DNA of 64,000 bases from Candidatus Norongarragalinales archaeon (GCA_038884755.1 JAWABJ010000001.1:153792-217791); one strand, 5' to 3'; shown: positions 11,607 to 64,000, counted from the stretch's first letter. Program-made: numbers and translations. The notes: generated by a model not told the origin, from the sequence alone.

Positions 11607-11610
11607 AAAA

Positions 11611-13566
11611 ATGGTTTTGCGAGCGCACCAGAAGTTAAGCGTATTGTTTTTTTCCGTTCTAGCAATAGCTTTGCTTTTCACGGCGTTTTCCAACGAAAGT
11701 TCTTCCTACTCGGGACAGTCGCGTTCGCTTTCGTTCGAGAAAGCGAGTGCTTCCCCTGAAGGTTCTGCCAGCCCTTCTCCGAGCGGAGAGGCGAGCCCTA
11801 CTGGTGTTGCTTCGCCTTCCGCATCTGCTTCTCCGACTTGCTCTCCGCCTCCTGGCGGTTGTGGAAGCCGCTGTACGAGTTCTACCGAACGGGTGAGCAG
11901 GGTTTGGGACCAGAACGCTTGCGCTTGCGTTGACGACGGGCCTTTGCCGTCGTGCGCTTGCGGCAATGGGGCGGAGTGCAGCACGTGCTATTGCGAGGAC
12001 GTTACTTACAACGGCGTTCCTGCTGCAGTGTGCCGTTCTACTGGCGGTGATTGCGGAAACCCGTATTGCGCGAGCGGAAGCAGGAGCTGCCAGGACGTTT
12101 GCGGCGCGAACGGTTTTTGCGAGCCGAGGTGCAACAATTGCGCAGGACCAAACGGGTGGAATTGCTACGCGGAATCATGCAATTCTGGCACTGGTCGTTG
12201 CTCGCAGGATTGTTCTTTGACAGACGGCACTACCCCCGGATTATGCGGGACCGCCGGATTTCCCTGTTCTAAAAACAAGCGTTGCCAGAGTTGCGAGTGC
12301 GCTTGGGAGCCTTTGAACTGTTGTCCCGGCAACGCGCCGGCTTGCTTGGAGTGCGTTAATTTCTATCAATTCATACGCCATTACTGCAATCCCGTGACCG
12401 AGTCCTGCAGCCAGGACGGCCCGTATTCCTGCCCGCCGAGTTTTTGCGGTTCAGACCCGTGGTTCGGCTACGGGAACGCTTGCACTTACTGGGACTTTTT
12501 GGGTTGCACGCAAAGGGGTTTGGGCATAGCTTGCCCCTACTTTTCCAACTTGCAGCCCGACCCGCGTTGCGGGTCTCGGTGCGTGGGTGGTTCTCCCACT
12601 CCGACAGCTTCCCCTTCGCCTTCCAACACTCCTTCGCCTTCGGTTTCCCCGCCACCTTGCATTTACAATTGCATAAACGGTTTTTGTTCGAACGACCCGA
12701 ACCGTTCTTGCCAGTATAACGGCGATTTCAGGTGTTGCGTTGAAGTGAGCGCAAGCCCTTCTCCCTACGCTTCCCCTTCGCCTTCCAACACTCCTTCGCC
12801 TTCGGGCAGTCCTTCTCCCAGCGGCAGTCCGTCGCCTTCGCCTTCCAACACTCCTTCGCCTTCGGGCTCCGCCTCCCCGTCTAGCTCTCCTTCTGCAAGT
12901 CCTTCCGTTTCAGGCTCTCCTTCCGGCAGTCCTTCGCCTTCCGCCAGCGTGGGTGGTTCTCCCAGCCCTTCAAACGGAGGAGCCGGTTTTTGCGGCGACA
13001 GGATAATCCAGCCTCCTGAAGAGTGCGATACTGACGACGGCGTGTGCAAAATTCGCGGTCCGACTTACGCTTGCAGCGTGGCTTGCGAGTGTTTTGATGC
13101 GGAAGGGTTTTACGGCGGGATAGTGAAGCTTCCTGACGTGAAAATAGTGAGCGGAACGCAGGTTGAAAGCGCTGAACTCGCAGTGTTATACAACCACGCT
13201 TCAGACGGGTTGGGTGCAAGCGAAGGCGACATAGGCAATTTCTTTTCGATTTTGGTTGACGACAGGAATATAATTACGCAGTGCTTGGAGCAAGAGCCCG
13301 CTTGCCTGCGCTACGGCGGCGAACCAGGGGTTTTCGTTCTCACGCTTTCGCCGCAGTTGCTTGGCTTGCAGTCTCAAGAGCTTCCAGAAGGTTCTTACCG
13401 AATCAAGGCCATAGTGCGCGAAAACGGGGTTTTCTACGAGGCGAACGCGCCCAACGCGCTAATAGTGCAGAGGCAGGAAACCTCGCTGCCCGAAACCGAC
13501 TTTCTCGTCGTGTTGTTTTTCGCCTTGCTCGCGGCGTTCGCAATGCGCACTTCGCGGAAGCGATAG
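11611..13566 (+). CDS. large Cys-rich cell-surface protein with Ser/Pro linkers and an LPETD-TM-basic C-terminal sorting-signal-like tail
   Basis: 651 aa with a signal peptide and more than 60 Cys. S/P/T linkers (SPSPSNTPSPSGSPSPS...). A Myxococcus-type Cys repeat FCGDRIIQPPEECD. The C-terminus is ...RQETSLPETDFLVVLFFALLAAFAMRTSRKR. Confidence 0.7.
   Translation: MVLRAHQKLSVLFFSVLAIALLFTAFSNESSSYSGQSRSLSFEKASASPEGSASPSPSGEASPTGVASPSASASPTCSPPPGGCGSRCTSSTERVSRVWDQNACACVDDGPLPSCACGNGAECSTCYCEDVTYNGVPAAVCRSTGGDCGNPYCASGSRSCQDVCGANGFCEPRCNNCAGPNGWNCYAESCNSGTGRCSQDCSLTDGTTPGLCGTAGFPCSKNKRCQSCECAWEPLNCCPGNAPACLECVNFYQFIRHYCNPVTESCSQDGPYSCPPSFCGSDPWFGYGNACTYWDFLGCTQRGLGIACPYFSNLQPDPRCGSRCVGGSPTPTASPSPSNTPSPSVSPPPCIYNCINGFCSNDPNRSCQYNGDFRCCVEVSASPSPYASPSPSNTPSPSGSPSPSGSPSPSPSNTPSPSGSASPSSSPSASPSVSGSPSGSPSPSASVGGSPSPSNGGAGFCGDRIIQPPEECDTDDGVCKIRGPTYACSVACECFDAEGFYGGIVKLPDVKIVSGTQVESAELAVLYNHASDGLGASEGDIGNFFSILVDDRNIITQCLEQEPACLRYGGEPGVFVLTLSPQLLGLQSQELPEGSYRIKAIVRENGVFYEANAPNALIVQRQETSLPETDFLVVLFFALLAAFAMRTSRKR
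12742..12979 (+). repeat. low-complexity Ser-Pro-encoding repeat tract (linker) inside the 11611 gene
   Basis: Reiterated GCTTCCCCTTCGCCTTCC-like units encode (A/G)SPSPS(N/G)TPSPSGS. A shorter tract lies at 12595-12667. Confidence 0.7.
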
Positions 13567-13615
13567 CGCGCCGTTCAGATGTTTTAAAAAGCACTTTCGT
13601 CTGATTAATTGCGAG

Positions 13616-14170
13616 ATGGGCGCGGAGAAAATAATCCTTGTGGCGGCTTTGCTTTTCGTGGTTATCGCTTTGTTTGTCTGGCAGCCGTTCCGCCCGCCTT
13701 TACCTTCGCCAACGCCTTCGGTTTTGATTCCAACACCGACGGCTTCTATTCCTTCGCCAGTAGACTTGCAGGCTGAATGTAACAAGAAGCTTTCCGACGC
13801 AATACGCTTGTTCAGCCCTGGCGCGTGTGAACAGATTTCCTGCGAAGAGCAGAAGAATTACTGCTTGGGAGTGCTGGGGAAGGACGTGCAGGCTTGCGAA
13901 AAGCTTGAAACGCAAGATTACAAGGACGTTTGCTACGGCAACATGGCTTCGAAATTAAAGGCGAGGGAATTGTGCGACAGGATTGCGAACGGCGACAGGA
14001 AAAACTATTGCTTGTTGGGCTTCGACCCGAAGGAATCTTATTGTGATGCTATGGTTTTGCACTCGTTCAAGGACAATTGCTACCACCGGCTTGCGATAGT
14101 GTTGAAAGACGCTTCTTATTGCGAGAAGATAAGTAGTAATTCCACCAGGGCGCGTTGCGCTGGTCGATGA
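13616..14170 (+). CDS. membrane-anchored/secreted Cys-rich protein (184 aa), hypothetical
   Basis: N-terminal TM IILVAALLFVVIALFVW, then a PSPTPS linker, then repeated (K/R)NYC.../DVCYGN Cys motifs. Confidence 0.55.
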   Translation: MGAEKIILVAALLFVVIALFVWQPFRPPLPSPTPSVLIPTPTASIPSPVDLQAECNKKLSDAIRLFSPGACEQISCEEQKNYCLGVLGKDVQACEKLETQDYKDVCYGNMASKLKARELCDRIANGDRKNYCLLGFDPKESYCDAMVLHSFKDNCYHRLAIVLKDASYCEKISSNSTRARCAGR

Positions 14171-16026
14171 AAATGCGTTTTCTTGCTTTCGCCTTTGTTT
14201 TTGCCTTCGCGCTTTTTGCGCAGCAGGGCTTTTCCCAAGGCGTTCCCATGTGTCCTGGCAATGGAAACAATTTCGAGTGCCCGCCTTGCAACGAGCCTTG
14301 CTCGATTCCCGTCGGTCCGCCGGAGTGCTGCGCTTGGAACCCCAACGCAGGTCCCGAATGCCAAGGCGTTTTGCCCGCGTGCATGGTTTGCGCGGTTGCC
14401 ATTCAAGCCGCTCCTGCTTCCAACCTCAACTTTTGCACTTCCTCCGGCTACGAAGCTAAAGCTTTGGAGGGAGTTGTTCCCGCGCAACGCGCTTTGATTT
14501 CCTTGGCTGAAACTTGCCCTGATACTGTGACGACAGTCCCTTGCAACAACAAGTTTGGAGACTGCTGCTTGTGCGACGGCACGCTCATGACTTATCAAGG
14601 AGATGAGGAAACCCTCCGCTGCCTGCCGGGCACGTGCGAGCCTGGGGTGAGCGAATGCAATTTCGAAAACCAGGGTTTCAGGTGCGAGGCTGACGCCATT
14701 CCCAACGGCTGCACTCCAGACCCGAACGTTTGCGCTTCCCCTTCTCCATCACCTTCGCCCAGCCCCTCTCCAAGCCCTTCCCCCAGCGCTTCGCCCAGCC
14801 CTTCGGCTTCTGCCTCTCCAAGCCCCTCGCACACGATTTGCTCCTTGGGTTCGTGTATTGTCGTTCAAGGTCCTGGTCCGAATTATTGTTTTTCAAACTC
14901 CGATTGCGTTGAGCCGTCGCACACGATTTGCTGGCTAGGGCAATGCATTTCAATCCAAGGCCCAGGCCCGAACTATTGCAGTTCTAACGCGAATTGCGTT
15001 TCGCAATCGCACACCATATGCTCCAACCAGCAGTGCATTTCTGTTGTAGGCCCCGGCTCGAACCAGTGTTCTTCCAACAGCCAGTGCGGTTCGGCTTCGC
15101 CTTCCCCCAGCCCAGGCGGCTCTCCTTCCCCAAGCGGTTCTCCCACTCCCTCGGGCAGTCCTTCTCCTAGCGGCAGTCCCTCGCCTTCCGGTTCTCCTTC
15201 GCCTAGCGGAAGCCCGTCTCCAAGCGGTTCTCCTTCTCCCTCAGGGTCTCCCAGCCCTTCCGGCTCGCCCAGCCCCTCCGGTTCTCCTTCGCCTTCGGGC
15301 AGTCCTTCTCCCAGCGGAACTCCGTCGCCTTCGCCTTCCAATACGCCGTCCCCTTCGGGCTCCGCTTCGCCTTCGGGTTCTCCGAGCGGCAGCCCCAGTT
15401 CTTCCCCGTCTTCTTCACCCAGCTCGTCTCCAAGCGGTTCTCCAGGCGGAGGGTATTGCGGAAACGGGGTGATAGACCCGGGCGAGGTTTGCGACAAGGC
15501 CAACAACGCCGGATGCGCGCAAGGGGAATTCTGCAACTTCGACTGCAGCGCTTGCTTCTCGCCAGGTTCGCCTGAAGGAAGCATACTGCGCATCGAAGGA
15601 AAGCGCGTGATTGGCGGGGAGGAAATCCAGGCTGCGACAGTGCCGATTTTGTACAATACCGCGGCAACCGGGCTTGCCGCCCCTTGCAGCGAGCAGGTCA
15701 AGGGCAGTTTGTTGTTCACGATAGACGACGCGCGTTTGGGAAGCATTCCCGAGGCGTTGTCTTGCGACTCTTCAAAACCCGGGGTTTTCATTCTCACGCT
15801 TTCGCCGCAGTTGCTGGGATTGCAGTCGCAAGAGCTTCCTTCCGGAAGCTACCGCGTGAAAGTAGAGGTTGACGAGGGAGGGACGGTTTACAGCGCGAAC
15901 GACCCGCAGGCTTTGATTGTAGTAAAACAAAAGCAGGCTTTGCCTGAAACGGATTTCCTCGTCGTATTGTTCTTCGGCTTGCTTGCCTTGCTTTTCGTGC
16001 GCAGCGGCACGCGCCGCAACGAGTAA
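14155..16026 (+). CDS. large Cys-rich cell-surface protein, paralog of 11611..13566, with an LPETD-TM-basic C-terminal tail
   Basis: 623 aa with a signal peptide. It has three tandem HTIC-x-LG-x-C-I-x-[VI]-x-GPGPNYC-x-SN-x-x-C modules and long (GSPSPS)n linkers. A YCGNGVIDPGEVCD repeat is present. The C-terminal module is near-identical to the 11611 protein, ending ...KQKQALPETDFLVVLFFGLLALLFVRSGTRRNE. Confidence 0.7.
   Translation: MRWSMKMRFLAFAFVFAFALFAQQGFSQGVPMCPGNGNNFECPPCNEPCSIPVGPPECCAWNPNAGPECQGVLPACMVCAVAIQAAPASNLNFCTSSGYEAKALEGVVPAQRALISLAETCPDTVTTVPCNNKFGDCCLCDGTLMTYQGDEETLRCLPGTCEPGVSECNFENQGFRCEADAIPNGCTPDPNVCASPSPSPSPSPSPSPSPSASPSPSASASPSPSHTICSLGSCIVVQGPGPNYCFSNSDCVEPSHTICWLGQCISIQGPGPNYCSSNANCVSQSHTICSNQQCISVVGPGSNQCSSNSQCGSASPSPSPGGSPSPSGSPTPSGSPSPSGSPSPSGSPSPSGSPSPSGSPSPSGSPSPSGSPSPSGSPSPSGSPSPSGTPSPSPSNTPSPSGSASPSGSPSGSPSSSPSSSPSSSPSGSPGGGYCGNGVIDPGEVCDKANNAGCAQGEFCNFDCSACFSPGSPEGSILRIEGKRVIGGEEIQAATVPILYNTAATGLAAPCSEQVKGSLLFTIDDARLGSIPEALSCDSSKPGVFILTLSPQLLGLQSQELPSGSYRVKVEVDEGGTVYSANDPQALIVVKQKQALPETDFLVVLFFGLLALLFVRSGTRRNE
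15085..15450 (+). repeat. tandem 18-nt repeat array (GGTTCTCCTTCGCCTAGC-like), about 18 units, encoding (GSPSPS)n
   Basis: The period-18 unit is visible directly in the nucleotides at 15120-15310. Each copy differs by synonymous or near-synonymous changes. Confidence 0.8.
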
Positions 16027-17551: not shown

Positions 17552-19489
17552 TCACTTCCGCTTGACTTCGTAAATTTCGTAGTCTAAGTCGTTTATTGTT
17601 TTTTTGTATATTAACTTGAAAAGCGGGGAGGCGCGTATCGCGGTTTCGTTCAGCCCTTTGAACCTGCGTTCGTTGCTGGGAATGAGTGAAACGTGCGTTA
17701 TGCCGTATTTCCTTATGACTTCGTCCATTCTTTTTCCCGAGTAGAAGTCGTATTGGTTTGTCGCCCGTTCGTACCAATCGCTTCTTCCCTTGACCCACCC
17801 TACCGCGGGAAACCCGAGCATTCTTACCCTGCCTACGAGGTCGAAAGCGTGAGGGCCGTCGAAAGCGATGACGACCGCGTCAGGCGGGAGGATTGCATTC
17901 GCGTCTTTCGCGAATTCTATGTCGGCGCGTCCGTAGAGCGAAAGCTGGTTCCAAGCGTCCTTCTGGATTGAAAGGGCGCCCGGGAGTATTGCCGCTGCCA
18001 GAATAACAACCGCTGCCGCAGGCGGAATGAAGTTTAGCAAAGCCGTTTCGTTTTTTTTTCCTTTGCGCACTGGAAACCGGAATTCGAAAAGCCGTGCGAG
18101 GGCGATTGCCCCCAAAGCAAAAGTAGGAATTTGCCACAGGTTGACGAGCTTCATGTTGTTCATGTAGTCGGGCGAAAAGCGGAACATGCTGAACGCAAGG
18201 AAAAGCGGAACGAACGCAACGTAATACTTGCGCACGGTTTTTGGGGAAGTGAAAAACGCGCTTAGCGCGAGCAGCAGGGGAAGCCCCATGTTTTGCACCC
18301 AAAACCACGCTATGTCGACGGGGTTTTGCGAAAGCGCCCTCCACCCTATTTCCAACGCCACGTAACTGTTGGAAGTGGAGGGCTCGAGCCACGCGTACGT
18401 TTGCACCGCGCCCAAAACCAAGGCGGGCGCGAAAAACCACGCCCATTTCCTGCTCCTGTAAATCACGAACAGTGCGCCTGCGGTCAGCACGCACGCTATG
18501 AACGCGGCTTCACGCATTAGCGGAAGAAAGCCCGCGAGTACCCCGCTCGCGAAAAGCATTTTGTTCAACCGCTTTTGTTGCCTTTCGGGAGTTTTCGCGG
18601 TCTCGAACTGCCTGGCTATTTCGAAAAGCATTATGAACACGACTACCGCGACGGTATACCCGAAGTTGCTTGCCCTCTGCCTCGCCAAGTGCGATTTGAA
18701 AAACTGGATTATGTGGCCCACCCACGGGTTTTCTATCAGCGCGGCGTAATCCCTGTCCGGATTTTCAAGCCACTCGCCTACGCTCGCGTGCTTTTGCGCG
18801 TCTTCAAGCATCATTCCGTAAGACATGCTGCCGGAGAAAAAGAGGAACAAGACGGCGACGATTGCCGCGTTTTTGCTTGAACCCAAGCGAAACGCGAGGA
18901 AGTAGACGCACGCGAAAAACGCGATTATCATTATCAGTGCCGGGACTGCGAACGCGAGAGTGAAAGGCATTTCAAGCCTTTCCAGCACTCCCGAGTACAA
19001 GTCTATCAAGAACGGGTAGTTGAGCGGAACGCCTGCGTACTGCGGGTCTTGCGGAGGCACTATGTGATTGTATGCAAAGTATTTCTCGATGTTGACGTGG
19101 TAGTACGTGTCCTGCCAGAACAACGCGCTCACTTCGTAATTCAAGCTCTTGTTCACGTGCACTGCGCCGTACGAAAACAAGACTATTATAAGGAGTATTA
19201 CGGGCGCCATTCTCAGCCAAAACCCGGAGTCCCACCCTTTTTCGAAAGCGCGCCCTCCCCCTCCCCGCAGCAACGCGACCGCAGCCATTGCAAGAGCAGC
19301 AAGCGCGGCGTAGTGCGCTTGCGCGCCGAAAGCGAAAAAAGAGGCGTAAGCCACGACCGAAGCGAGCGGCAGGCCTATCGCAATCGAAAAGAAGATTTGC
19401 TCTTCGCGAGTTTTCGCAAGCCCGATTTTCTTTTCTACTGCAAACCCGAAGAGTATAGAGAACAGGATAAAAAGAATGCCGAGAATCAT
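17552..19489 (-). CDS. large polytopic membrane protein, GT-C-like glycosyltransferase candidate (paralog A)
   Basis: 645 aa with about 13 TM helices and a roughly 120-aa C-terminal soluble domain. It is a paralog of 35793..37670 (for example LFASGVLAGFLPLMREAAF...RSRKW versus LFAAGVLAGLLPLAHAHS...SVRKW). It is co-oriented with the Dol-P-sugar synthase. Confidence 0.55.
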   Translation of the reverse strand: MILGILFILFSILFGFAVEKKIGLAKTREEQIFFSIAIGLPLASVVAYASFFAFGAQAHYAALAALAMAAVALLRGGGGRAFEKGWDSGFWLRMAPVILLIIVLFSYGAVHVNKSLNYEVSALFWQDTYYHVNIEKYFAYNHIVPPQDPQYAGVPLNYPFLIDLYSGVLERLEMPFTLAFAVPALIMIIAFFACVYFLAFRLGSSKNAAIVAVLFLFFSGSMSYGMMLEDAQKHASVGEWLENPDRDYAALIENPWVGHIIQFFKSHLARQRASNFGYTVAVVVFIMLFEIARQFETAKTPERQQKRLNKMLFASGVLAGFLPLMREAAFIACVLTAGALFVIYRSRKWAWFFAPALVLGAVQTYAWLEPSTSNSYVALEIGWRALSQNPVDIAWFWVQNMGLPLLLALSAFFTSPKTVRKYYVAFVPLFLAFSMFRFSPDYMNNMKLVNLWQIPTFALGAIALARLFEFRFPVRKGKKNETALLNFIPPAAAVVILAAAILPGALSIQKDAWNQLSLYGRADIEFAKDANAILPPDAVVIAFDGPHAFDLVGRVRMLGFPAVGWVKGRSDWYERATNQYDFYSGKRMDEVIRKYGITHVSLIPSNERRFKGLNETAIRASPLFKLIYKKTINDLDYEIYEVKRK

Positions 19490-35792: not shown

Positions 35793-37670
35793 ATGTTTGT
35801 CGCGCTTTTGTTTCTCTTGAGTTCGCTTTACTCCGGGTTCGTCGCCGCGAAAAAACTCGGCATTCTGGATACCGAAATCAAGCGGCTTTCGATTGGTTTT
35901 CTCGCGGGTTTCGTGCTGCAAAGCGCGTTTTTGCTCGCGCTGTCGTGGCTTTCCGGCGGGCTTGAGGAGCAATGGATTCTGCTTTCGTCGGTTGTTTTCG
36001 TTTTGGCCGCTTTCGCTTTCGACAGGCGTTTCGCCGTTGCGAGATTGAGGGAAAGGAGGCTTCCTTTCGTTTCCAACGCGGACAGGATTGCCCTCGCTTT
36101 TTCCCTGTTGTTTCTTGCCTTGAATTTCCTTGCAATCCTGCATCCCACGCAAACCGGCTTCGAGTCTGTGGCGAGCGTTTGGGGGGATTATCCCCTGCAT
36201 TTGAGCATAGCGAATTCCTTCGCATTGCGGGACAATTTTCCGCCGCAATACCCCGTTTTGCTGGGAGAGCCTTTGAAATACTCTTTCCTGTTCGACTTCA
36301 GTTCCGCAATACTGTTGAAAGGCGGTTTCGACTTCCGTTCGGCATTCCTTGTGCCAAACGCCTTGGTTTTCGTGGCTTTCGCGCTGGCGCTGGTGCTGTT
36401 GTGCGAGCTTTTCGCCGGAAGCAAGGGAAGGGTTTTGTTCGTTTTCCTGGCTTTCGCATTGTTTTTCTTCAACGGGAACTACGGGATGGCGGGCGCGCTT
36501 GAAGACGCTTTTTCGCAGGGAAGCCTGTCGCCGCTTTTGCACCCCGACCGCAATTATTCCAACGCAGACGACAAGGGCGTGGTGGTGATGAACTGGGTTT
36601 ACTCCATTCTCATGCCGGCGAGAAGCGCTTTGTTGGGCCTGGCAATTTCGGTTTTCACTTACGCCGTGCTTTTCTCGAGCGTGTTGAATTCGCGTTGGAA
36701 CAGGCGGGAGCTTTTTGCAGCGGGCGTTTTGGCCGGGCTTTTGCCTCTAGCCCACGCGCACTCGCTAGTGGTTGTTGGTGCGGTTGCCGGGTTTTTGTTC
36801 CTGTTTTCCGTGCGAAAGTGGAAAGAGTGGGTTTTTTTCGCCGGTCCCGCCGCAGTTATTGCCTTGCCGCAGTTGGCTTGGCTTTCTTCCAAGGTTTTCT
36901 TCAAAATTTTTCCCGGTTGGCTTTCGCCGGAAAAAAGCTTTCTAGGTGTTGCAGAGTTTTGGGTCAAGAATGGGTGGGCCGTGCTCCTTTGCTTTGCGGC
37001 TTGGCTTGCGTTCGCTTTGAAAAGCAATGACTGGAAAAGACTGGCTCTCGCCGCTCCCTTCGCCTTGGTTTTCGTGCTTGCGAACCTCTTCGTGCTTCAA
37101 CCGTGGGAGTGGGACAACACCAAGTTTTTCATGCAATTCTTTCTTTTCGCCTGCATTGCAAGCGCGTTGTTCCTGGAGTCGCTGTGGACGGCACAAGGAA
37201 AACAACGAATTTTGCACAAGGCGGTCGTTGTCGTGATAGTGCTTTTGGGAGTTGCGTCGGGAGTGCTGGCAATATTGTGGACCGGCTGGGGGGACAACGC
37301 GCGTTACGAGACGTTCTCGAAAGAGGACGTTGCGCTTGCTGCATGGATAACTGTCAACACGCCTAGCGGCGCGTTGTTTTTGAGTTCCACTTTCCACCAT
37401 AATCCAGTGCCTGCTCTGGCCGGAAGGCAGATTGTGGCCGGGTACGAAGGCTGGCTGTGGAGCCACGGGCTAAACTACCAAAAGACTTTGCAGGACGCCA
37501 AGAAAATGTTCGAAGAGGCGGACTGCCGTTTGATGGGCGAGTACGGAGTTGATTTCGTGCTTGTAAGAAAAACGTGGGAGGATGCGGCGTTGTACGAAGG
37601 AAAAGGTTTCGAAAGGGTTTATTCCGACCGACGCGGGAACATGGTTTTCAAGTCCAATTGCATTGCATAG
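35793..37670 (+). CDS. large polytopic membrane protein, GT-C-like glycosyltransferase candidate (paralog B)
   Basis: 625 aa, collinear paralog of 17552..19489: shared HPDRNY, LFAAGVLAGLLPL and VRKWKEW blocks, and the same C-terminal soluble domain. Confidence 0.55.
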   Translation: MFVALLFLLSSLYSGFVAAKKLGILDTEIKRLSIGFLAGFVLQSAFLLALSWLSGGLEEQWILLSSVVFVLAAFAFDRRFAVARLRERRLPFVSNADRIALAFSLLFLALNFLAILHPTQTGFESVASVWGDYPLHLSIANSFALRDNFPPQYPVLLGEPLKYSFLFDFSSAILLKGGFDFRSAFLVPNALVFVAFALALVLLCELFAGSKGRVLFVFLAFALFFFNGNYGMAGALEDAFSQGSLSPLLHPDRNYSNADDKGVVVMNWVYSILMPARSALLGLAISVFTYAVLFSSVLNSRWNRRELFAAGVLAGLLPLAHAHSLVVVGAVAGFLFLFSVRKWKEWVFFAGPAAVIALPQLAWLSSKVFFKIFPGWLSPEKSFLGVAEFWVKNGWAVLLCFAAWLAFALKSNDWKRLALAAPFALVFVLANLFVLQPWEWDNTKFFMQFFLFACIASALFLESLWTAQGKQRILHKAVVVVIVLLGVASGVLAILWTGWGDNARYETFSKEDVALAAWITVNTPSGALFLSSTFHHNPVPALAGRQIVAGYEGWLWSHGLNYQKTLQDAKKMFEEADCRLMGEYGVDFVLVRKTWEDAALYEGKGFERVYSDRRGNMVFKSNCIA

Positions 37671-43183: not shown

Positions 43184-45829
43184 TCAGAGTCCTTTATTCT
43201 TTCTTCTTCCTATCGAGTAGGCGACCAGCGCAACAACGAAAACCGCGATTATGAGCGCGTAAATCAAGCTCGAGTTTTGCGTTTGGATTCTAATTGCGTT
43301 TTCGTTCGGTTTCAGGGTTTGCGTCGGCTGGATTCTATTGGACTCGGGTTTTTCCTCGTCCACCAGCGTCAAAACGGTGAACTCGTCGAGAATTTTTTCT
43401 TCAGTTTTTTCGTTCAAACTCACGCTGACCGTGAATTTTTCGAACGGCTTAAGAGAAAGCCTTTCCCACGTTGCTATTATGCTTCCTTCGCTCGTTTGAG
43501 ATGGTTTTGGTGAAATGTTTATTTTTCCGGCAATGTATTCAGAATAGTCGAAGGGCAGAGTCCACGCGAGCGTTCCTTTGAATCCCCTGCTTCCTGCAGT
43601 ATATGATAGGGAAAACACGGTTTTAGAAAGGAAAAACTCGCCTTTTATCTTAGCCCTAGGGTCTAAAGTTTTTTCTTTCACCTTCGGCGCTGGAGCCGTA
43701 ATAGTGGGCGTTGGTGTGGTTTTAGCACCACGCCAGTCTATGTAAACATCGCGTCCTCGTGAACCGCCCGAAACTACGGTCATTTGAAAGTTTGCAAGGA
43801 GAGTGGTGCAAGTTGCTGAATAGTTTTGCGCTTCGGGAAAACACGCGGTGTAGTTGAAAGTTTCAGCGAGGGCAGAAGGTGTTTGATTGCTTTCCTCTAC
43901 GTAAGAACTGTCGAAATCCACGCTAGTGCCGTTGCGGTAGAGCGTGAGATTGCCTTCCGTGACGTTTTTCCAAGCCGAAGCGTTGACTGCCACGCTTGAG
44001 GTGTAACTCCTGTCTTCTGCGCTTCCGTCGAGTGTTGCAGTGATTGAAACGCTTCCCTTGCTTACAGTGAGAAAATGCGTGTCGGTCGATGTGCTGTAAT
44101 TCGTGTTGGCATCACAGTGAATAGTGTAGTTGTAATATCCTGCCGCGAGAGTTGTTATTTCCGGGTTTGAGCGTATAGTGGAATTTCTGTACAATGTATC
44201 AATCACTATTCCGGAACAAAAGCCCGAGGCGTTTACGCTTTGAGGATATGCGATAGTCAAATCTGCGTCGGTAGAGTTGAGCAATAGGTTTGCTCCCGTG
44301 GTGTTCTTCACCACGACTATACTGTAAGTTTGCGAAGTGGAAGCTCCAACGCCATCCAACGCCGTGAAGTTATAGTAATAAGTTCCCGCAGGCAGTCCTG
44401 AAATATTGTAATTCCACACTCCAGAAGTGCTCGTTCCGTTCCAAAGACTCATGGTATAGTTGGTGTTTTGAAAACTCATGTTGACTTCGGAAATTCCGCT
44501 GTCGTCTTTCAAAGAAACGAAGAATTGCATCGTGAGTGGAGTGTTGAATTCCGAACCATTGGTGAAATTCGAGGTTTGCCACTGGAATTCTGGAGGTGCG
44601 TTTATCGAAATCGTCACTTCGCTCGAACCAACTTGATTGTCGGTAACGTTCCTTTGAGTTTGGTTCCAACGCGAGCCTACTGACGCGGTGAAATTGTGGT
44701 ATGAAGTGAATACTTTCGTTTCACTTCCGTTCAGATAATAGTGCCTTAACTCCTGCCTTTGAACGTATCCTGTAGAATTGGTGGTTCCCGAAAAGTGGGT
44801 GTGAGATTCGTTGTCTATTACCACGACATTCGCTCCTTCAACCGCAGTGCCATTAGCGTATTTGACTACCACGTCAACCCACCACAACCGGTTTACTGTG
44901 GACTGGCTTAAGTTTCCGGTTGAGAATTCAAACTTGTCGCTTTGCCAAGTGGTGTTTGTAAAGTTGAAGTTTGTGCCGTTGATTAAAGCCACCGTTCCGT
45001 TTGCGTCTCCAGTGGAGTTTGTTTGGTTGATTATAACGTTTTTGAATACTACCGTAGTGAGCAGGGAATTCCCCATTTGTATCAAGTAGTTGGTCGTAGT
45101 TTTTCCTTGACGTTGAATGAGCTTCGAGTTGTAAACCCTAAGGCTGTAATTGCCGGTCGTGTCGCTGGCGGTGTCGCCAAAACCGAAAATCACGGGAATG
45201 GCGTCTGTATCTCCAGACGCGGCGTATTCTATTCGCGAATTTTCTACTATTACCGTAATGTTGCTTTTCGTTGCTTGAGCAAATCCCGCTCTCACAAGGC
45301 TGGTGCCGGTTATAGTAATGTTGGCTATGGAATTGTTGAAATACACCACCAGCGGTGCCCCGCTTGGATTTACGGACATTTGAAGACAAGCGCCATCCGG
45401 CTGTGCGGTAAGAGTCAATTTCTTTAGAGTGCCGTTAAAAAGAACGTTGTAAAACGTTAAGTTGGAATAAGTTGTGGTTATCGAAGCGCAAGAGTCGAAT
45501 CCGGTTATGTACGCCAAGACATTAGTAAGATTGTTTCCGCCTTTACTGCCGTTTTGGAAAGAAAAAACCGTGGGGTTTCCGCTCGTTCCAGTATAGGTGG
45601 AAGTGATGTTGTAAGTTGGTTTGTCAGTTGTAAAACCGCTCGAGTTGGCTGAAGAATTGAAGGTTATGCTGGGAGTGGTTGAACTCGAAGTCGTGTGAGT
45701 CAAGTTTCCGGTTATATTATACCAGTCTCCTTGCGTTCCAATCGTGTAAGGAAGGGACGAGATTGTTATTGCAGACGCGGAGAGGAAAGAAGCCGTAACG
45801 ACTGCTAACAACAATAGCGCGATTTTCAT
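43184..45829 (-). CDS. large secreted, heavily N-glycosylatable surface protein (S-layer glycoprotein candidate) with C-terminal TM anchor
   Basis: 881 aa with a signal peptide MKIALLLLAVVTASFLSASA. More than 50 N-x-S/T sequons (NIT, NLT, NSS, NGT, NFT, NYS...). S/T/N-rich beta-like composition. C-terminal TM plus basic tail LIYALIIAVFVVALVAYSIGRRKNKGL. Confidence 0.6.
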   Translation of the reverse strand: MKIALLLLAVVTASFLSASAITISSLPYTIGTQGDWYNITGNLTHTTSSSTTPSITFNSSANSSGFTTDKPTYNITSTYTGTSGNPTVFSFQNGSKGGNNLTNVLAYITGFDSCASITTTYSNLTFYNVLFNGTLKKLTLTAQPDGACLQMSVNPSGAPLVVYFNNSIANITITGTSLVRAGFAQATKSNITVIVENSRIEYAASGDTDAIPVIFGFGDTASDTTGNYSLRVYNSKLIQRQGKTTTNYLIQMGNSLLTTVVFKNVIINQTNSTGDANGTVALINGTNFNFTNTTWQSDKFEFSTGNLSQSTVNRLWWVDVVVKYANGTAVEGANVVVIDNESHTHFSGTTNSTGYVQRQELRHYYLNGSETKVFTSYHNFTASVGSRWNQTQRNVTDNQVGSSEVTISINAPPEFQWQTSNFTNGSEFNTPLTMQFFVSLKDDSGISEVNMSFQNTNYTMSLWNGTSTSGVWNYNISGLPAGTYYYNFTALDGVGASTSQTYSIVVVKNTTGANLLLNSTDADLTIAYPQSVNASGFCSGIVIDTLYRNSTIRSNPEITTLAAGYYNYTIHCDANTNYSTSTDTHFLTVSKGSVSITATLDGSAEDRSYTSSVAVNASAWKNVTEGNLTLYRNGTSVDFDSSYVEESNQTPSALAETFNYTACFPEAQNYSATCTTLLANFQMTVVSGGSRGRDVYIDWRGAKTTPTPTITAPAPKVKEKTLDPRAKIKGEFFLSKTVFSLSYTAGSRGFKGTLAWTLPFDYSEYIAGKINISPKPSQTSEGSIIATWERLSLKPFEKFTVSVSLNEKTEEKILDEFTVLTLVDEEKPESNRIQPTQTLKPNENAIRIQTQNSSLIYALIIAVFVVALVAYSIGRRKNKGL

Positions 45830-54793: not shown

Positions 54794-56221
54794 ATGGGTA
54801 AAGTGGGCCTGGAAAACTCTAAGCTTATTGCGGCGTTTGCCCTTGCGCTATTGGCAATCCCGTTTTCCCACGCGGTTGAAAACTGCGCGGACTTGATACG
54901 CTTCGGCTACTCGTCGAGTGCCATAATGCCCATTTACGGGCAGGACGTTTCGCCAGGCGGCGCGGTGGTTGCGGTAGTGTCGCTCAAACCCGTGGCTTTC
55001 TATTTGGGCGAAAACGGCTATGCCGAGTATTTCTTCACGGCTTTGGAAGACCAGTACCAGGGAGGAAAGCAGCTGATGGCCATAGGCGACGTGTTTTACA
55101 GGCACGAGAATACCACTGGGTTCAACAACACTTACTTCCGCAAGGCAAAGCAAAAGCCAGTTTACGTCGAGAGCGGGGACGAATTCACGATAGAATTCCA
55201 GCCGGACTTCAAGCTAGAATACAAAGACCGTTCTTTCACCACGGGCGTGCTGAGGTTTTCTTCCACGAAGCCCATCGCCTTTGGAGCGGGATACGGGTTC
55301 GGAGACAGTGTGATTGCGCTTGCAGAAACGCTTGACCCGCTGGTCGCAGAGTTCAAGCGCGGGAGCATTTTCCTTGAATCCAAAGACGGGCTGGTTTACG
55401 TGCCTGACGGGAGAGTGCGGTTCGTAGGCTCTTGCACCGCCTCGTGCTCCGACCCGGACGTTACGGATTATTACTCCAACGCCACTTGCAAGTCCACCCT
55501 CGTCGACGGAAGCGATTACTGCCTAAGCGAGAGCGAGCTCGTGGAATTTTCGTGTTCTTTCCAAAACAACTGCGCCCCGAAGCAGTTCTCTTGCCCGTTC
55601 GGGTGCAAGGATGGCAAGTGCATTACCGGCGAGAAAGCGAAGTGCGAAGATTCCGACGGACTGAACTTAGCGCAGAGGGGAAGGACTTCCGGAAACTACC
55701 CCAACGGATCGAAATTCTCGTTTCTCGACGAGTGTTCCGGAAGCACGAAGCTCATTGAATACTACTGCACTGAAGAAAAGGTTTTGAAGAAAAACGTTTT
55801 GGAATGCAACGGCGGCTCGTGCGAGGACGGAGCTTGCGTTCCAGTGCCTACTGTTGCCGAGTGTTCCGACACCGACGGCGGGAGGGATTACGAAACTTCT
55901 GGCGTTTGCTCGGATTCCTCGGGAAGCTACCCCGACTCTTGTGCTGAAAGCTCGGTGGTGGAATACTATTGTGAATCCGGCTACTGCAAAACCATAGTTT
56001 CCCCGTGCTCGCAGTGCTCGGAAAACGCGTGCTCGAAAAGCGAACTCGTCCCAACGTCGAACACTGCACTGTTCGCAATCGTGGTTTTGGCTGTCGCAGT
56101 CTTGGCTTTCGCCCTCAGCATGCGCGGGAGGCGCAAGGAAACGCTGGCTTCGGAAATAGAAAAGATAAGCTACGAAGTTCCCAAGCCGCCGGCGTTCAAG
56201 AAAAGCGGAAAGAAAAAATAA
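54794..56221 (+). CDS. secreted Cys-rich protein with three ~55-aa CxDxDGG-type modules and C-terminal TM anchor plus K-rich cytoplasmic tail
   Basis: 475 aa with a signal/TM at the N-terminus. The modules are CSDPDVTDYYSNATC..., CEDSDGLNLAQRG...EYYCTEEK..., and CSDTDGGRDYETSGVCSDSSGSYPDSC...EYYCESGYC.... The TM is LFAIVVLAVAVLAFALSMRGRRK. Confidence 0.6.
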   Translation: MGKVGLENSKLIAAFALALLAIPFSHAVENCADLIRFGYSSSAIMPIYGQDVSPGGAVVAVVSLKPVAFYLGENGYAEYFFTALEDQYQGGKQLMAIGDVFYRHENTTGFNNTYFRKAKQKPVYVESGDEFTIEFQPDFKLEYKDRSFTTGVLRFSSTKPIAFGAGYGFGDSVIALAETLDPLVAEFKRGSIFLESKDGLVYVPDGRVRFVGSCTASCSDPDVTDYYSNATCKSTLVDGSDYCLSESELVEFSCSFQNNCAPKQFSCPFGCKDGKCITGEKAKCEDSDGLNLAQRGRTSGNYPNGSKFSFLDECSGSTKLIEYYCTEEKVLKKNVLECNGGSCEDGACVPVPTVAECSDTDGGRDYETSGVCSDSSGSYPDSCAESSVVEYYCESGYCKTIVSPCSQCSENACSKSELVPTSNTALFAIVVLAVAVLAFALSMRGRRKETLASEIEKISYEVPKPPAFKKSGKKK

Positions 56222-60119: not shown

Positions 60120-63100
60120 GTGCAGGAACGCGCGTTTTTCGCCTTGTTTTCGATTATGATTTTGAGCGGGCTTGTTTTCGCCGCCTCTTCCACGCCAATC
60201 CCCGAAAAAAAGCTTTTCGAAACCAACGACATGCTGTCAGTCCAGTTTCCGCAAAGCGCCTCGTACGAAATCAAGGACGGGAACAAGCTTTACTTCAACG
60301 AGCCGGTAAAAGAAGTTTACCTGCATTATTTCTCGGGCGGAAGCGAAACGAGGCAGACGCTTTACAAGGTCGGGCGCATTGATGTTTGGCCGAAATTCGA
60401 AATGCTGGTTTTCGACAACACTTCGCAGTCGACGATGGTCGTTTTGAAAGACAAGCGCACGACTGTGCAGACGGCCGTGCGCTTCAGGGCGGTTTTCTAC
60501 GAAACTTCCGTTTCTTCTGCAGCACCAGCGCAGGACTCTCCGGTCACAACCCCTTCCGCAGTCTGTCCTTTCGTTTACGGGTTTAAGAAAGACGGGGCAA
60601 TAGCCGGCTTCAGGCTCAGCGACAACGGAACCGCTAAAGACCTGAAGACCGTGGTTTTCGGTGAAACGGATGCGGTCGATTACACCCTCCTGTGGCCTTC
60701 GGGCGAAAGCACGGTGAAGAAATTCAACGTAAAGAGAATAGAACTCTTGACTGCCACGCAAGGCAACGCGAAGAAGGAAGTTTCCGACACCAAAACCTCG
60801 TACTCGTTCGCTTCGCCCGTTATTATCCTGGTCACTCCCGAGAACGGGAAACAATTCGTGGCTGCAGTAAAGAAAATGACTTTCTCGTCCAAATCGAGCG
60901 TGGAAAAGGCGTTCCAGTTCGGCGCTCCTGACGTGGGCAACGTCAAGACCGAATACACTACCGGCGCTTTGGCAGTCCAATCGCGCGAAAAGCCGTTTTC
61001 GTTCAATTTGGTTGAAGACCAGCGGGTTTCTTCCTTCGACTGGGACCCTTCGAGCGCCTCGTGCTATCCAGTTTTCGTCGAGGGCGCGGAAAAGCCAGTT
61101 TGGGTGAGGGACTTGAGTTGGGAGAGCGCGCCTTCGTACGCCGGTTCGAGAGCCGGGAACGCGCAAGGCTGCGCCGCGCAGTTGGGAAGGTGCATTACCG
61201 AAACGACCGCCAACCTTTACAAGCTTAAGTTTTCTTCCGAAACTAAAGTCACGCTGGTTTCGTGCAACGTGCTTCAAGACAATCCCGTTGCGAAAGCCAA
61301 ACTCGGCGAAGTTGAATTCGATTTGGTCGCGCTGTTCGACAAGAAGCCCGAGTTCGTTTTCGACGGGGCTAAGTTCGAATTCAAGTATTCGTTCAGGCAA
61401 GGCAACGCGAAAGACTTCGGAATCAACAACGGCGTTTGGCACGTGGTTTACGACCCTGCTGCCTTCGATTACTACCACTCTTTGAACAAGAACGGCGGCG
61501 TGCCTTCTGCAGTGCCGCGCCACGAGGACGAGGCTTACGCGCCTCAAAACCACTACTGCCCTAGCGCCGGCGTGAATTCCTACACCCTAATGAACAGCGG
61601 GGATTATCTCGCCAGAATGTGGATTGCCGGCACGCAAGGCGATTTGGTTTTGAGCGAGAGCCTCGTGCGCTTGGTCCACTCCCCCTCCACCTTCGGCCAG
61701 TTCCTGCTCGCACACCGCTCTTCCGACGTTGTGCAGGAAAACTTCCAATTCCGCACGAACTACGTTGAAGCGCGGAACGCGCCGAAAGCGCTTTTGTTCA
61801 ACAATCTTTTATACTCGGTTTTTTCCTTGTCTCCAGCAACCTCCAGCTCTGCCGCCGGTTTCCTTGCAAGCGTAAAGGATGCTGCAACCAACAACGCGGT
61901 TTTAGACGTCGTGAATCCGGGCGCGTTCGGAAGCGTAGGAAAAATTTCTTTGAGGAACGTTTTCTACACCGGATACAAGATTTCCTTGAAATCAAAAGAC
62001 GACAAGTTTGAAGGGGTTGCTTTTACCATTCTCCAGCCAAAGTCTGCCGGAGCTCCAGGCGCCGATTGCGAATCTTCATTCTTCAACCCGTCGGCTCAGT
62101 CGAGCAAAAAGTGTTTTGACGCCGCGCCGTTCTGCTGGGGGTATTTGAGCGGCAGCGGAACTCCCTTCGGAAACTATCGCTGTTACCCTGTTTCCGCAGG
62201 CAACGGCTATCCTGCCGCGGACGCTTACGCATGCAAGGGAACGGTTTATTCCGACCTGAACGCGCAGACGCGAGAGCACGGGACCGTGTATTTGAAGTAC
62301 GCCGAAGGCAAAGGGCATTGCTCCAACAACCAGCGGGCTGAAGAGTTGATTAAAGACGGCAGTTGCAAGAAAACGCCTTTGGAAAACATTTCTTACGTCG
62401 TAACCAAAGACGGCAAGGAAATGACTTACAAAGTGAAAGTGCTGGACTGCTCTGCAAGGTATTCCGACGCGAACGCTGGCGGAGCCGGCGGTAGGGACAG
62501 GCCGCCTGCGGCCGGAACCGGAAGGGCGTCCATTCCCGCACTCGAATCTTCAGGCGGCCTTTCGGTGAAAACCCCCGCCCAGAAGGTGAAAGAATGCCGC
62601 AGCCAAGGCGCGGGCTTCGACTGCAGGAACGTGAACGCTTGCGACCCTGCCTCGATAAAACGCGGCTTGTGTCCGGGCGGTGACGACAACGTGTGCTGCA
62701 AGGCAAAAGGACAGGATTCCGAAAAGTGCGAAACCCTTCCTGTTTCCGAGTGCAAGAAACAACCTTCGTGCGAAGTGAAAAGCTCCGGAGGCGTAGATTC
62801 TTGCGTCCCGAAGGCGTCTTCCTCGGAAACTTGCGAAACCCTTTCACCCTCCGAATGCCGCAAGAATTCGAAGTGCGTGGTAATACCGACGACAACCTAC
62901 GGCAACGCTTGCATTTCGAAATCAAACGCACCGTCGTGCTCTTCGATAGGCGTTTCGCGATGTAGCTCGTACGAATACTGCGAGGTTATAGACACTACCT
63001 ACGGCAAAGCGTGCGTCGAAAAATCGGCTGCAACGCCGAAGCCTCCAAAAACCTGGAACCTGCCTGACGGCAAAACCTGTTCCGACATTCTCAAGCAACA

Positions 63101-63671
63101 GGATTGCGTGAAGTACTACCAGTGCGATTGGACTAGAGACCAGTACGGCGTTTGGTCTTGCGACGTGAAAGCCGGAAACGCCCGCGACTCGTGCGAGGCC
63201 GTGGGAGGCTGGAGCTGCAACGCCGCCTCTGCCTGCGTGCCTTCGACCGCTGACAAGCGCGGGGCGGGAACGTGCCCGTACGGGACAGTGTGCTGCCAGC
63301 CGCTCAAATCCCTGCCTTCAGGCGAAACCTGCTACTCCATAAGCCCGTCGCTTTGCTTGCAGTACCGCTCTTGCGAACTGATAGACGCGTCTTTCTACGG
63401 CAAAGCATGCGTGCCCAAAACCGCACCGAAAGGCTCTTTGTTCCTACCCGCAAGCAAAAGCTGCTCTTCCATAAGTGAAACCGATTGCCTGAAGTACGTG
63501 GAATGCACTTTGCAGTACAAGTTCGGCACATCCATTTGCGTGACTAAAACTGGCTACTGGAAACTGCCTGCTGGAAAAACCTGCAGCAGCATAAGCAATT
63601 CGGAGTGCAATTACTACAGCAAGTGCAAGCTTGCAAGCACGGTAGGCGGGACTTTCTGCCAGGAAAAGTGA
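60120..63671 (+). CDS. very large secreted protein (1183 aa) with at least 7 tandem ~30-aa 4-Cys modules in the C-terminal third
   Basis: Signal peptide MQERAFFALFSIMILSGLVFAASS. The N-terminal ~800 aa is non-repetitive. The C-terminal modules have the pattern [KT]C-x5-(E/D)C-x5-C-x9-11-C[VI]-x-K (for example TCETLSPSECRKNSKCVVIPTTTYGNACISK and SCSSISETDCLKYVECTLQYKFGTSICVTK). There is no TM anchor. Confidence 0.65.
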   Translation: MQERAFFALFSIMILSGLVFAASSTPIPEKKLFETNDMLSVQFPQSASYEIKDGNKLYFNEPVKEVYLHYFSGGSETRQTLYKVGRIDVWPKFEMLVFDNTSQSTMVVLKDKRTTVQTAVRFRAVFYETSVSSAAPAQDSPVTTPSAVCPFVYGFKKDGAIAGFRLSDNGTAKDLKTVVFGETDAVDYTLLWPSGESTVKKFNVKRIELLTATQGNAKKEVSDTKTSYSFASPVIILVTPENGKQFVAAVKKMTFSSKSSVEKAFQFGAPDVGNVKTEYTTGALAVQSREKPFSFNLVEDQRVSSFDWDPSSASCYPVFVEGAEKPVWVRDLSWESAPSYAGSRAGNAQGCAAQLGRCITETTANLYKLKFSSETKVTLVSCNVLQDNPVAKAKLGEVEFDLVALFDKKPEFVFDGAKFEFKYSFRQGNAKDFGINNGVWHVVYDPAAFDYYHSLNKNGGVPSAVPRHEDEAYAPQNHYCPSAGVNSYTLMNSGDYLARMWIAGTQGDLVLSESLVRLVHSPSTFGQFLLAHRSSDVVQENFQFRTNYVEARNAPKALLFNNLLYSVFSLSPATSSSAAGFLASVKDAATNNAVLDVVNPGAFGSVGKISLRNVFYTGYKISLKSKDDKFEGVAFTILQPKSAGAPGADCESSFFNPSAQSSKKCFDAAPFCWGYLSGSGTPFGNYRCYPVSAGNGYPAADAYACKGTVYSDLNAQTREHGTVYLKYAEGKGHCSNNQRAEELIKDGSCKKTPLENISYVVTKDGKEMTYKVKVLDCSARYSDANAGGAGGRDRPPAAGTGRASIPALESSGGLSVKTPAQKVKECRSQGAGFDCRNVNACDPASIKRGLCPGGDDNVCCKAKGQDSEKCETLPVSECKKQPSCEVKSSGGVDSCVPKASSSETCETLSPSECRKNSKCVVIPTTTYGNACISKSNAPSCSSIGVSRCSSYEYCEVIDTTYGKACVEKSAATPKPPKTWNLPDGKTCSDILKQQDCVKYYQCDWTRDQYGVWSCDVKAGNARDSCEAVGGWSCNAASACVPSTADKRGAGTCPYGTVCCQPLKSLPSGETCYSISPSLCLQYRSCELIDASFYGKACVPKTAPKGSLFLPASKSCSSISETDCLKYVECTLQYKFGTSICVTKTGYWKLPAGKTCSSISNSECNYYSKCKLASTVGGTFCQEK

Positions 63672-63677
63672 GTTGCA

Positions 63678-64000
63678 ATGGGCAGCACCCGCTTGTTTCT
63701 GTTGGTTTTACTTTTTTCCGCGGTCCTCTTCGCAGGCTGCGTTTCCAGCCAAAACCCAGCGGAAAGACAGGTCCAGAGTTCGGAAAACGCGCTGGAACTA
63801 GAGCGTTTTGTTGAAACGCAGGAAGAGCTGGACGCCTTCGACCAGGAATCTTTCTCCGAGTCCGAGAAAAAAATCTTGGAGGCAAACCAAGCGTACTTGG
63901 ATTTCATTGGCGAGGCTGGAAAACTCAACAACCTCGCGTTCGACTGCGCAAATTTCGAGCTCTACCAGAAAAACCTCGACACCCTCCAGAACGCGATTGA
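63678..64000 (+). CDS. putative lipoprotein, N-terminal fragment (runs off window end)
   Basis: MGSTRLFLLVLLFSAVLFAGCVSS has a lipobox-like LFAGC. An acidic coiled region follows. Confidence 0.4.
   Translation, partial: MGSTRLFLLVLLFSAVLFAGCVSSQNPAERQVQSSENALELERFVETQEELDAFDQESFSESEKKILEANQAYLDFIGEAGKLNNLAFDCANFELYQKNLDTLQNAI

Follow-up and report, generated by a model that had tools for sequence, protein, structure and literature searches.

A gene close to the end of a 64,000-nucleotide (nt) stretch of DNA from Candidatus Norongarragalinales archaeon (class Micrarchaeia, DPANN; GCA_038884755.1, JAWABJ010000001.1:153792-217791; hereafter the window) encodes a secreted modular protein of 1183 amino acids (aa), in which a large head is followed by a tail of nine small Cys-rich modules (complete gene at 60120..63671, + strand; open reading frame (ORF) translation and match in NCBI). 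Two module families build up this tail, and both are, as judged by sequence comparison, without described counterpart in the libraries searched. Head and tail are separable evolutionary units: the tail is exchanged together with a small downstream gene for a protein with a lipobox, against a Cys-poor domain that comes without a lipobox gene. We tentatively propose that the disulfide-stapled tail may dock on the co-transcribed acidic lipoprotein and thereby tether the anchor-less head to the cell surface.

A sequence-only reading of the window had described at least seven tandem 4-Cys modules at the C-terminus. Exactly seven copies are present; the array is, however, not uniform, since two 6-Cys modules had been overlooked. 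The tail runs in the order [6C][4C x4][6C][4C x3], with each 6-Cys module heading a super-repeat (all features on the + strand). 6-Cys module 1 (aa 826-860, CRSQGAGFDCRNVNACDPASIKRGLCPGGDDNVCC; 62595..62699) is followed by 4-Cys modules 1 (aa 870-898; 62727..62813), 2 (aa 905-934; 62832..62921), and 3 (aa 940-968; 62937..63023), all four delimited by Cys map, alignment, and AlphaFold2 (AF2) model, and by 4-Cys module 4 (aa 987-1017; 63078..63170), a variant with C-x8-C and C-x12-C spacing. This and the remaining modules were placed by Cys map and alignment, that is, 6-Cys module 2 (aa 1025-1059, CEAVGGWSCNAASACVPSTADKRGAGTCPYGTVCC; 63192..63296) and 4-Cys modules 5 (aa 1071-1100; 63330..63419), 6 (aa 1115-1143; 63462..63548), and 7 (aa 1155-1183; 63582..63668). 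The latter comprises the last residues of the protein, which terminates three residues past the final Cys. Taken together, the seven 4-Cys copies (nt 62727-63668) follow the pattern C-x7/8-C-x5-C-x10-12-C-x2-K.

Within its 364 aa, the tail shows the spacing C-x7-8-C-x5-C-x10-12-C eight times, whereas composition-preserving shuffles (n=5000) averaged 0.21 and reached at most three; the eighth match led to the two 6-Cys modules, which end in CC and have the same initial spacing as the 4-Cys units. An alignment of 16 4-Cys copies, drawn from three proteins that include orthologues in other metagenomes, shows every one of the four Cys unchanged (16/16), and conservation extends to Leu/Ile at C1+3, Ser at C1+4, an aromatic residue at C2+3, Glu-Val after C3, and Lys/Arg at C4+3. 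Because of these invariant Cys and the additional conserved positions, the 4-Cys module is, on the evidence of the alignment, a genuine domain under selection, and the regular unit of ~30 aa claimed by the sequence-only reading is borne out. The number of Cys is even in every module as well as in the whole protein. The DNA itself contains no tandem repeat, for which reason the module copies are old and diverged.

No known repeat class could be named from the sequence alone, and this still holds after comparison with described families and folds. Whole-protein scans against Pfam and NCBIfam gave no match at E<=10, the tail alone none in Pfam at E<=0.01, and 16 4-Cys and 16 6-Cys copies scanned singly none in Pfam at E<=10. 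Likewise, there was no match in PHROGs, none among PDB sequences with either the protein or the module profiles, and none in collections of phages and plasmids when the tail was compared by tblastn. A described Cys-repeat family, which by the sequence-only reading would have refuted it, was thus looked for and not found. When 1.84 billion cluster-representative proteins were searched exhaustively with phmmer, only ten matches to the protein were obtained, three of which are relatives of the N-terminal domain (P0002, P0003, and P0004), while the remaining ones all fall on aa ~820-865, i. e., on the 6-Cys module. The sequence-only reading had further suggested looking for the module elsewhere in the genome: its profile found no other copy within the 64-kb window, and no paralogue from the same genome was among the phmmer matches.

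Structure prediction of the module, another check suggested earlier, yielded a confident model that again matched neither a family nor a fold. For aa 821-971, AF2 gave a mean predicted local distance difference test score (pLDDT) of 86.3 at a predicted TM score (pTM) of 0.44. Each 4-Cys unit in this model consists of a short helix and a beta-hairpin, whereas the predicted secondary structure of the 6-Cys module comprises a helix at C1 plus one strand each at C2 and the CC pair, with no regular middle strand. Foldseek searches with the tail model gave no significant fold match, PDB included; follistatin/FSTL3 and Pfs25 top the list, but at noise level (E 1.8-3.3). The only high-probability match for the tail model (0.96 in Foldseek) comes from BFVD, where a fragment of an uncharacterized environmental protein from Megaviridae (A0A5J6VLI7) aligns over 91 columns at TM 0.20; its E-value of 0.029 is below significance. 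Tandem disulfide-rich beads are a familiar design on secreted proteins, and the two module families are undescribed in the libraries searched.

The exchange of the tail is evident from close relatives of the gene. P0002 shares the head but carries a 309-aa Cys-poor domain in place of the Cys tail. This alternative C-terminal domain (aa ~850-1158, L001 ~12550-13477) is without match in Pfam and PDB at E<=10, and a by-eye guess of a TIM-barrel glycosidase was dropped, as it found support in neither database. A metagenome scan with the 4-Cys modules retrieved two short contigs, L008 and L009. In L008, a head end that is near-identical to that of P0002 continues into a linker, one 6-Cys module, and four 4-Cys modules. 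At the DNA level, L008 nt 1-167 are 92.8 % identical to the P0002 gene up to codon ~785, the position of the head's last conserved Cys; the next ~1180 nt, which hold the Cys tail and a 152-aa ORF, lack homology to the P0002 locus, and homology returns at L008 nt 1349-1407 with the DNA just past the P0002 stop codon. Since homology stops before the tail and resumes only after the small ORF, the exchanged unit spans both. In the window, the breakpoint corresponds to the start of a low-complexity Gly/Ala/Pro/Ser linker (aa 786-825; 62475..62594, +; alignment) that separates the head from 6-Cys module 1.

A tRNA gene lies just past the cassette in L001 and L003. L001 additionally contains an insertion of ~860 bp relative to L003 (13622-14480; gene 13702-14634) with an ORF for a LAGLIDADG_3 endonuclease (Pfam, 30.5 bits), located between a conserved ~115-nt element and the tRNA gene, directly 3' of the swapped cassette. 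Such an endonuclease might have promoted the cassette exchange.

The small gene follows the Cys tail at 4/4 loci, namely in the window, in L003 (the locus of P0003), in L008, and in L009, and is absent from the locus of the Cys-poor P0002 (L001/L006). Its start in the window (63678..64000, +, running off the window; tblastn and alignment) encodes a small acidic protein with the lipobox-like signal MGSTRLFLLVLLFSAVLFAGC... The ATG at 63678 is 6 nt past the stop codon of the Cys-tail gene, and tblastn against the L003 copy gives an E-value of 8e-24. Gaps between the two genes range from 6 to 18 nt and are thus operon-like. A lipobox is defined as [LVI][ASTVI][GAS]C directly after the N-terminal hydrophobic region, and a high prevalence of proteins carrying it has been predicted for DPANN (PMC12462473). 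The small proteins conform to this definition with L-F-A-G-C (window), L-L-A-G-C (L003), and L-A-A-G-C (L008 and L009) after a hydrophobic N-terminus, L-x-A-G-C being invariant in their alignment. In every pair, moreover, the isoelectric points are complementary (4.05-4.2 for the mature small proteins vs 7.9-8.6 for the tails).

The protein itself is both secreted and anchor-less, as its only hydrophobic segment is N-terminal and the C-terminus is devoid of any. A hydropathy scan of all 1183 aa places this sole segment at aa 3-27 and none after aa 27, and the C-terminus reads ...GGTFCQEK, without the combination of C-terminal motif, hydrophobic helix, and basic tail that marks PGF/PEF-CTERM-like or transmembrane (TM) anchors. 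The absence of a membrane anchor asserted by the sequence-only reading therefore stands, and it is specific to this protein because other Cys-rich surface proteins in the window do have a C-terminal TM anchor.

These features can be combined into a tentative mechanism. What is shown is a Sec-secreted protein whose beta-rich head (aa 22-785) is linked flexibly to nine Cys-stapled beads. Outside the cell, the Cys of the tail would pair into disulfides, giving a rigid and protease-resistant rod. CxxC knuckles are usual in zinc sites; the extracellular location, the even number of Cys per module, and the absence of such knuckles are the reasons why disulfides are assumed here. The rod might then serve as docking element and bind the acidic lipoprotein, itself presumably lipid-anchored in the membrane, whereby the tail would hold the anchor-less head at the cell surface. 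For the likewise anchor-less S-layer protein (SLP) of Micrarchaeota, attachment through another protein bound to the membrane has been proposed (bioRxiv 10.1101/2021.04.28.441871). On a cautious estimate, tail and lipoprotein could represent an exchangeable pair of dock and anchor, not known before, that serves surface proteins of archaea.

Several points weigh against this proposal. The co-inheritance of tail and lipoprotein could just reflect the replacement of one DNA segment, the lineages at hand comprise four with the Cys tail and one independent Cys-poor one, and both the docking and the formation of disulfides in the tail are steps that we infer. The charge difference of the tail is modest, and the Pfam model LPAM_1 scores the small protein at 15.4 bits and thus below its cutoff of 20. 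Furthermore, two other proteins, P0006 and P0007, carry 6-Cys modules at their extreme C-terminus while owning an N-terminal anchor or a pilin-like TM segment, a placement that fits a distal, outward binding tip better than a membrane-proximal dock.

The same placement leads to a different explanation, which we regard as almost as probable as docking, though likewise tentative: the tail may be an outward-facing adhesin or ligand-binding array whose target could be a glycan, the envelope of a host or partner cell, a mineral, or biofilm matrix. The lipoprotein would then be an unrelated passenger or chaperone, and the protein would either be retained at the cell by other means or set free. That the 6-Cys module recurs on surface proteins (at the pilin-like tip of P0007, the end of the immunoglobulin (Ig) protein P0006, and in the LysM protein P0008) speaks for such a role, as do the variable number of 4-Cys copies (4, 5, or 7) and the exchange of the whole tail, both typical of diversifying interaction surfaces. 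However, family scans of the protein and its modules revealed no carbohydrate-binding or adhesin family, and such a role would account neither for the strictly joint inheritance of the tail with the closely coupled lipobox gene nor for the anchoring of the protein. In addition, it has been argued that Norongarragalinales count among those Micrarchaeota that depend less on a host (PMC12892359). Alternatively, the tail might be a mere rigid spacer or stalk of disulfide-stabilized beads without specific binding. Independently folded mini-domains on short linkers, whose number varies between orthologues, would suit this function, and the pTM of the tail model, low despite its high pLDDT, indicates no fixed packing between the predicted modules. 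A stalk at a free C-terminus would, however, space nothing once the signal peptide is presumably cleaved; the conserved non-Cys positions exceed the needs of a pure spacer, and a close relative replaces the tail by a globular domain and not by another spacer. We hence consider a spacer improbable.

Very little probability is assigned to two further explanations. A polyprotein precursor could be cut at the Lys/Arg that ends each unit, releasing ~30-aa defensin-like peptides as antimicrobials or signals, with the 6-Cys units as prokaryotic counterparts of the beta-defensin (trans-defensin) framework. The six-Cys framework of beta-defensins indeed ends in CC with a spacing that resembles the 6-Cys module, and beta- or trans-defensins fold into a three-stranded antiparallel sheet with disulfides C1-C5, C2-C4, and C3-C6. 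The predicted helix at C1 and strands at C2 and CC would be compatible with this topology; each 4-Cys module ends in C-x-x-K (with Arg in a few orthologue copies), and in P0003 and L008 adjoining modules abut directly as ...SK|TC... Nevertheless, a profile of the 6-Cys module scores hBD1-3 and BDS-I no better than Cys-fixed shuffles (hBD1 reaches 4.0 bits, as do 19/300 shuffles), and beta-defensin identity at the sequence level was accordingly rejected. There is also no Pfam defensin match, the PDB chains retrieved by Foldseek include no defensin, the modules carry no strong positive charge, and no protease gene is linked. The defensins reported in bacteria are cis-defensins only, trans-defensins having been described only in animals (PMC11561630). 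The resemblance is thus limited to the Cys framework and a compatible predicted secondary structure. It would be a bold extrapolation, and one we deem most improbable, to regard the 6-Cys units as a prokaryotic beta-defensin-like fold, the 4-Cys units as derivatives without the CC pair, and the tail as a polyprotein or display array of knots; if true, a fold described only in animals would have to be placed into DPANN archaea and other uncultivated microbes. Just as far-fetched is an S-layer or S-layer-associated lattice protein, suggested by a large, secreted, beta-rich, and anchor-less protein with synteny kept in several Micrarchaeota, which do possess an S-layer. The described SLP has TIGR01564/TIGR01567 domains, nearly no sulfur-containing residues, and homologues in 38/49 Micrarchaeota genomes (bioRxiv 10.1101/2021.04.28.441871), whereas the present protein is without NCBIfam match at E<=10, contains 54 Cys and only three N-glycosylation sequons, and belongs to a family found in a handful of genomes; S-layer identity was rejected on domain and Cys content.

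Among known systems, EGF-like and follistatin/Kazal arrays are closest in design to the tail, with units of ~30-40 aa, four to six invariant Cys, and few other conserved residues, strung as beads of variable copy number on secreted or surface proteins. They differ in Cys spacing and lack any sequence or profile match to the modules, for which a helix and hairpin with two disulfides are predicted; moreover, they are eukaryotic arrays, in contrast to the DPANN host found here. Beta-defensins share with the 6-Cys module six Cys of similar spacing, a terminal CC, and a G-x-C before the fourth Cys, but are free cationic peptides and not repeats embedded in large proteins. The proposed docking on a lipoprotein has parallels in SlaA/SlaB of Sulfolobales and in dockerin/cohesin, where an anchor-less protein is held by a membrane partner encoded in the neighborhood and the C-terminal dock is exchangeable. 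Neither is homologous, and the partner would here be a ~150-aa lipobox protein instead of a TM stalk, the interaction itself being a supposition. DPANN archaea have tiny genomes rich in large unannotated surface proteins that are thought to mediate cell contacts. Two compact Cys-stapled modules are now defined whose profiles could become domain families for annotating the dark matter of DPANN and the candidate phyla radiation (CPR). In addition, the clean cassette swap between near-identical genes constitutes a natural experiment that links the tail to the small lipoprotein and provides a concrete, testable hypothesis on the anchoring and diversification of DPANN surface proteins.

The 6-Cys module is the more widespread of the two and recurs in surface proteins from further uncultivated lineages that have nothing else in common with the present protein; it has the consensus C-x3-G-x-G-[YF]-x-C-R-x4-C-x7-G-x-C-P-G-G-x-D-N-x-C-C and a spacing of C-x6-8-C-x5-C-x8-12-C-x5-7-CC in 16 copies. 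Two copies each are found at the C-terminus of P0007, a T4SS-pilin-like membrane protein in a pilin gene cluster, and at the end of P0006, a protein of 1935 aa with Ig-like domains encoded beside an Amidase_2 gene; P0008, a LysM-containing protein of 2251 aa, has several. The cluster around P0007 (L004 4162-10786) comprises six consecutive T4SS_pilin-type genes and is reminiscent of a CPR-type pilus locus whose tips are Cys knots. In P0005/P0014, at least seven near-identical copies precede an unannotated domain. More generally, P0005, P0009, P0014 (L005 8001-9851), and P0015 carry 5-9 near-identical 6-Cys modules and, behind them, an unannotated domain of ~240 aa in which Cys and His are conserved; for P0005/P0014/P0015, a by-eye assignment of this domain as NlpC/P60-like was discarded, as Pfam and PDB offered no support. 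Proteins of the P0005/P0014 type are encoded on a contig of 19 % GC with very sparse genes, which may represent a very AT-rich eukaryote or symbiont. Owing to this occurrence, the 6-Cys module is, by its sequence distribution, not restricted to DPANN/CPR.

Both module types have identical C1-C4 spacing, and MAFFT places the 4-Cys units on the first four Cys of the 6-Cys module, which suggests a common origin of the two sequence families. Support from hhalign is lacking (probability 0.3 %, E 0.18, not significant), and the simple equation of the 4-Cys module with a 6-Cys module minus its CC pair was not retained. Unlike its 6-Cys counterpart, the 4-Cys module is, in the sequences compared so far, confined to one orthologous Micrarchaeota gene family. 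Within this family, the tails of P0003 and of the fragment P0010 each consist of a single 6-Cys module with five 4-Cys modules behind it, and the chain stops directly after the last of these.

As to the gene itself, the ORF starts with GTG and was recovered exactly as the sequence-only reading had given it in position and length. Its product is identical to the NCBI entry "hypothetical protein QXR53_01300" of Candidatus Norongarragalinales archaeon, located on a 714-kb contig; this entry begins at Met13 (MILSGL...), 12 codons downstream of the GTG (region 60120-60158). The first 12 codons are probably missing from the deposited annotation, since the upstream GTG gives a proper n- and h-region, yielding a normal n-h-c signal peptide, and aligns with the N-terminus of the orthologue P0002. 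The earlier claim of secretion is borne out by the presence of this signal peptide. The Sec-type signal peptide (aa 1-21, MQERAFFALFSIMILSGLVFA then AS; 60120..60182, +; hydropathy and P0002 alignment) has a presumed cleavage site and is followed by an extra N-terminal domain (aa 22-135; 60183..60524, +) that is beta-rich according to model strands (pLDDT 52-69) and, by alignment, common only to the present protein and P0002, since P0003 and P0004 lack it. From there, a Ser/Pro-rich linker (aa 136-148) leads to the family-specific core ectodomain (aa 149-785; 60564..62474, +; alignment, searches, and AF2), predicted to be beta-rich as well and opening with an invariant C-x-F-[VL]-Y-G motif. 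The sequence-only reading had assumed a non-repetitive N-terminal part of ~800 aa; this part is indeed large, but ends at ~aa 785 and holds a conserved 8-Cys subdomain (aa 650-777, including APFCWG...YRCYP; 62067..62450, +; Cys map and alignment). The protein's 54 Cys are distributed unevenly: aa 1-640 hold 6 of them, aa 641-860 hold 14, and aa 861-1183 hold 34. For the N-terminal domain, the sequence-only reading had considered an enzymatic or adhesive role. The domain matches no family, its AF2 model, based on a 4-sequence alignment, is poor (pLDDT 47.5), and Foldseek gave no fold match for it, all matches having TM <= 0.08.

Relatives of the N-terminal domain are 54 % (P0002, over aa 1-788), 33 % (P0003), and 27 % identical (P0004, a partial sequence annotated as Candidatus Micrarchaeota). 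A scan of one genome per GTDB species detected the domain in only two Micrarchaeota assemblies, and by these sequence searches the core ectodomain is known only in Micrarchaeota. P0002 and P0003 are syntenic orthologues, both encoded after an acylphosphatase gene. In the window, the genes upstream code for DNA polymerase D (PolD) DP2 and DP1, a Pfam-less 475-aa ORF, a Na+/H+ exchanger, an S-adenosylmethionine (SAM) methyltransferase, and acylphosphatase, and the entire PolD-to-acylphosphatase block is common to the P0002 locus. The Pfam-less 475-aa ORF is syntenic with an equally Pfam-less 420-aa gene there.

Elsewhere in the window, 10947-16026 (+) harbors a cluster of four Pfam-less predicted surface proteins with 6.5-8.5 % Cys. 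They resemble the present protein in being secreted, Cys-rich, and equipped with tandem ~30-aa 4-Cys units, but differ in their module (C-x4-C-x10-C-x5-C), their long Ser/Pro linkers, and their anchor of C-terminal motif, TM segment, and basic tail; the profile of the 4-Cys module described here finds nothing in them. Two members of 651 and 623 aa combine a signal peptide with Ser/Pro/Gly linkers of great length (SPSPSGSPSPS...) and share a C-terminus, ...[SA]LPETDFLVVLFF... plus basic tail, that in its sequence looks like an archaeosortase-type sorting signal. The different 4-Cys module HTICSLGSCIVVQGPGPNYCFSNSDCV occurs in three tandem copies in the 623-aa protein and once in a 219-aa ORF. 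Further large Pfam-less ORFs (475-881 aa) are located at 17552-19489 (-), 35793-37670 (+), 43184-45829 (-), and 54794-56221 (+).

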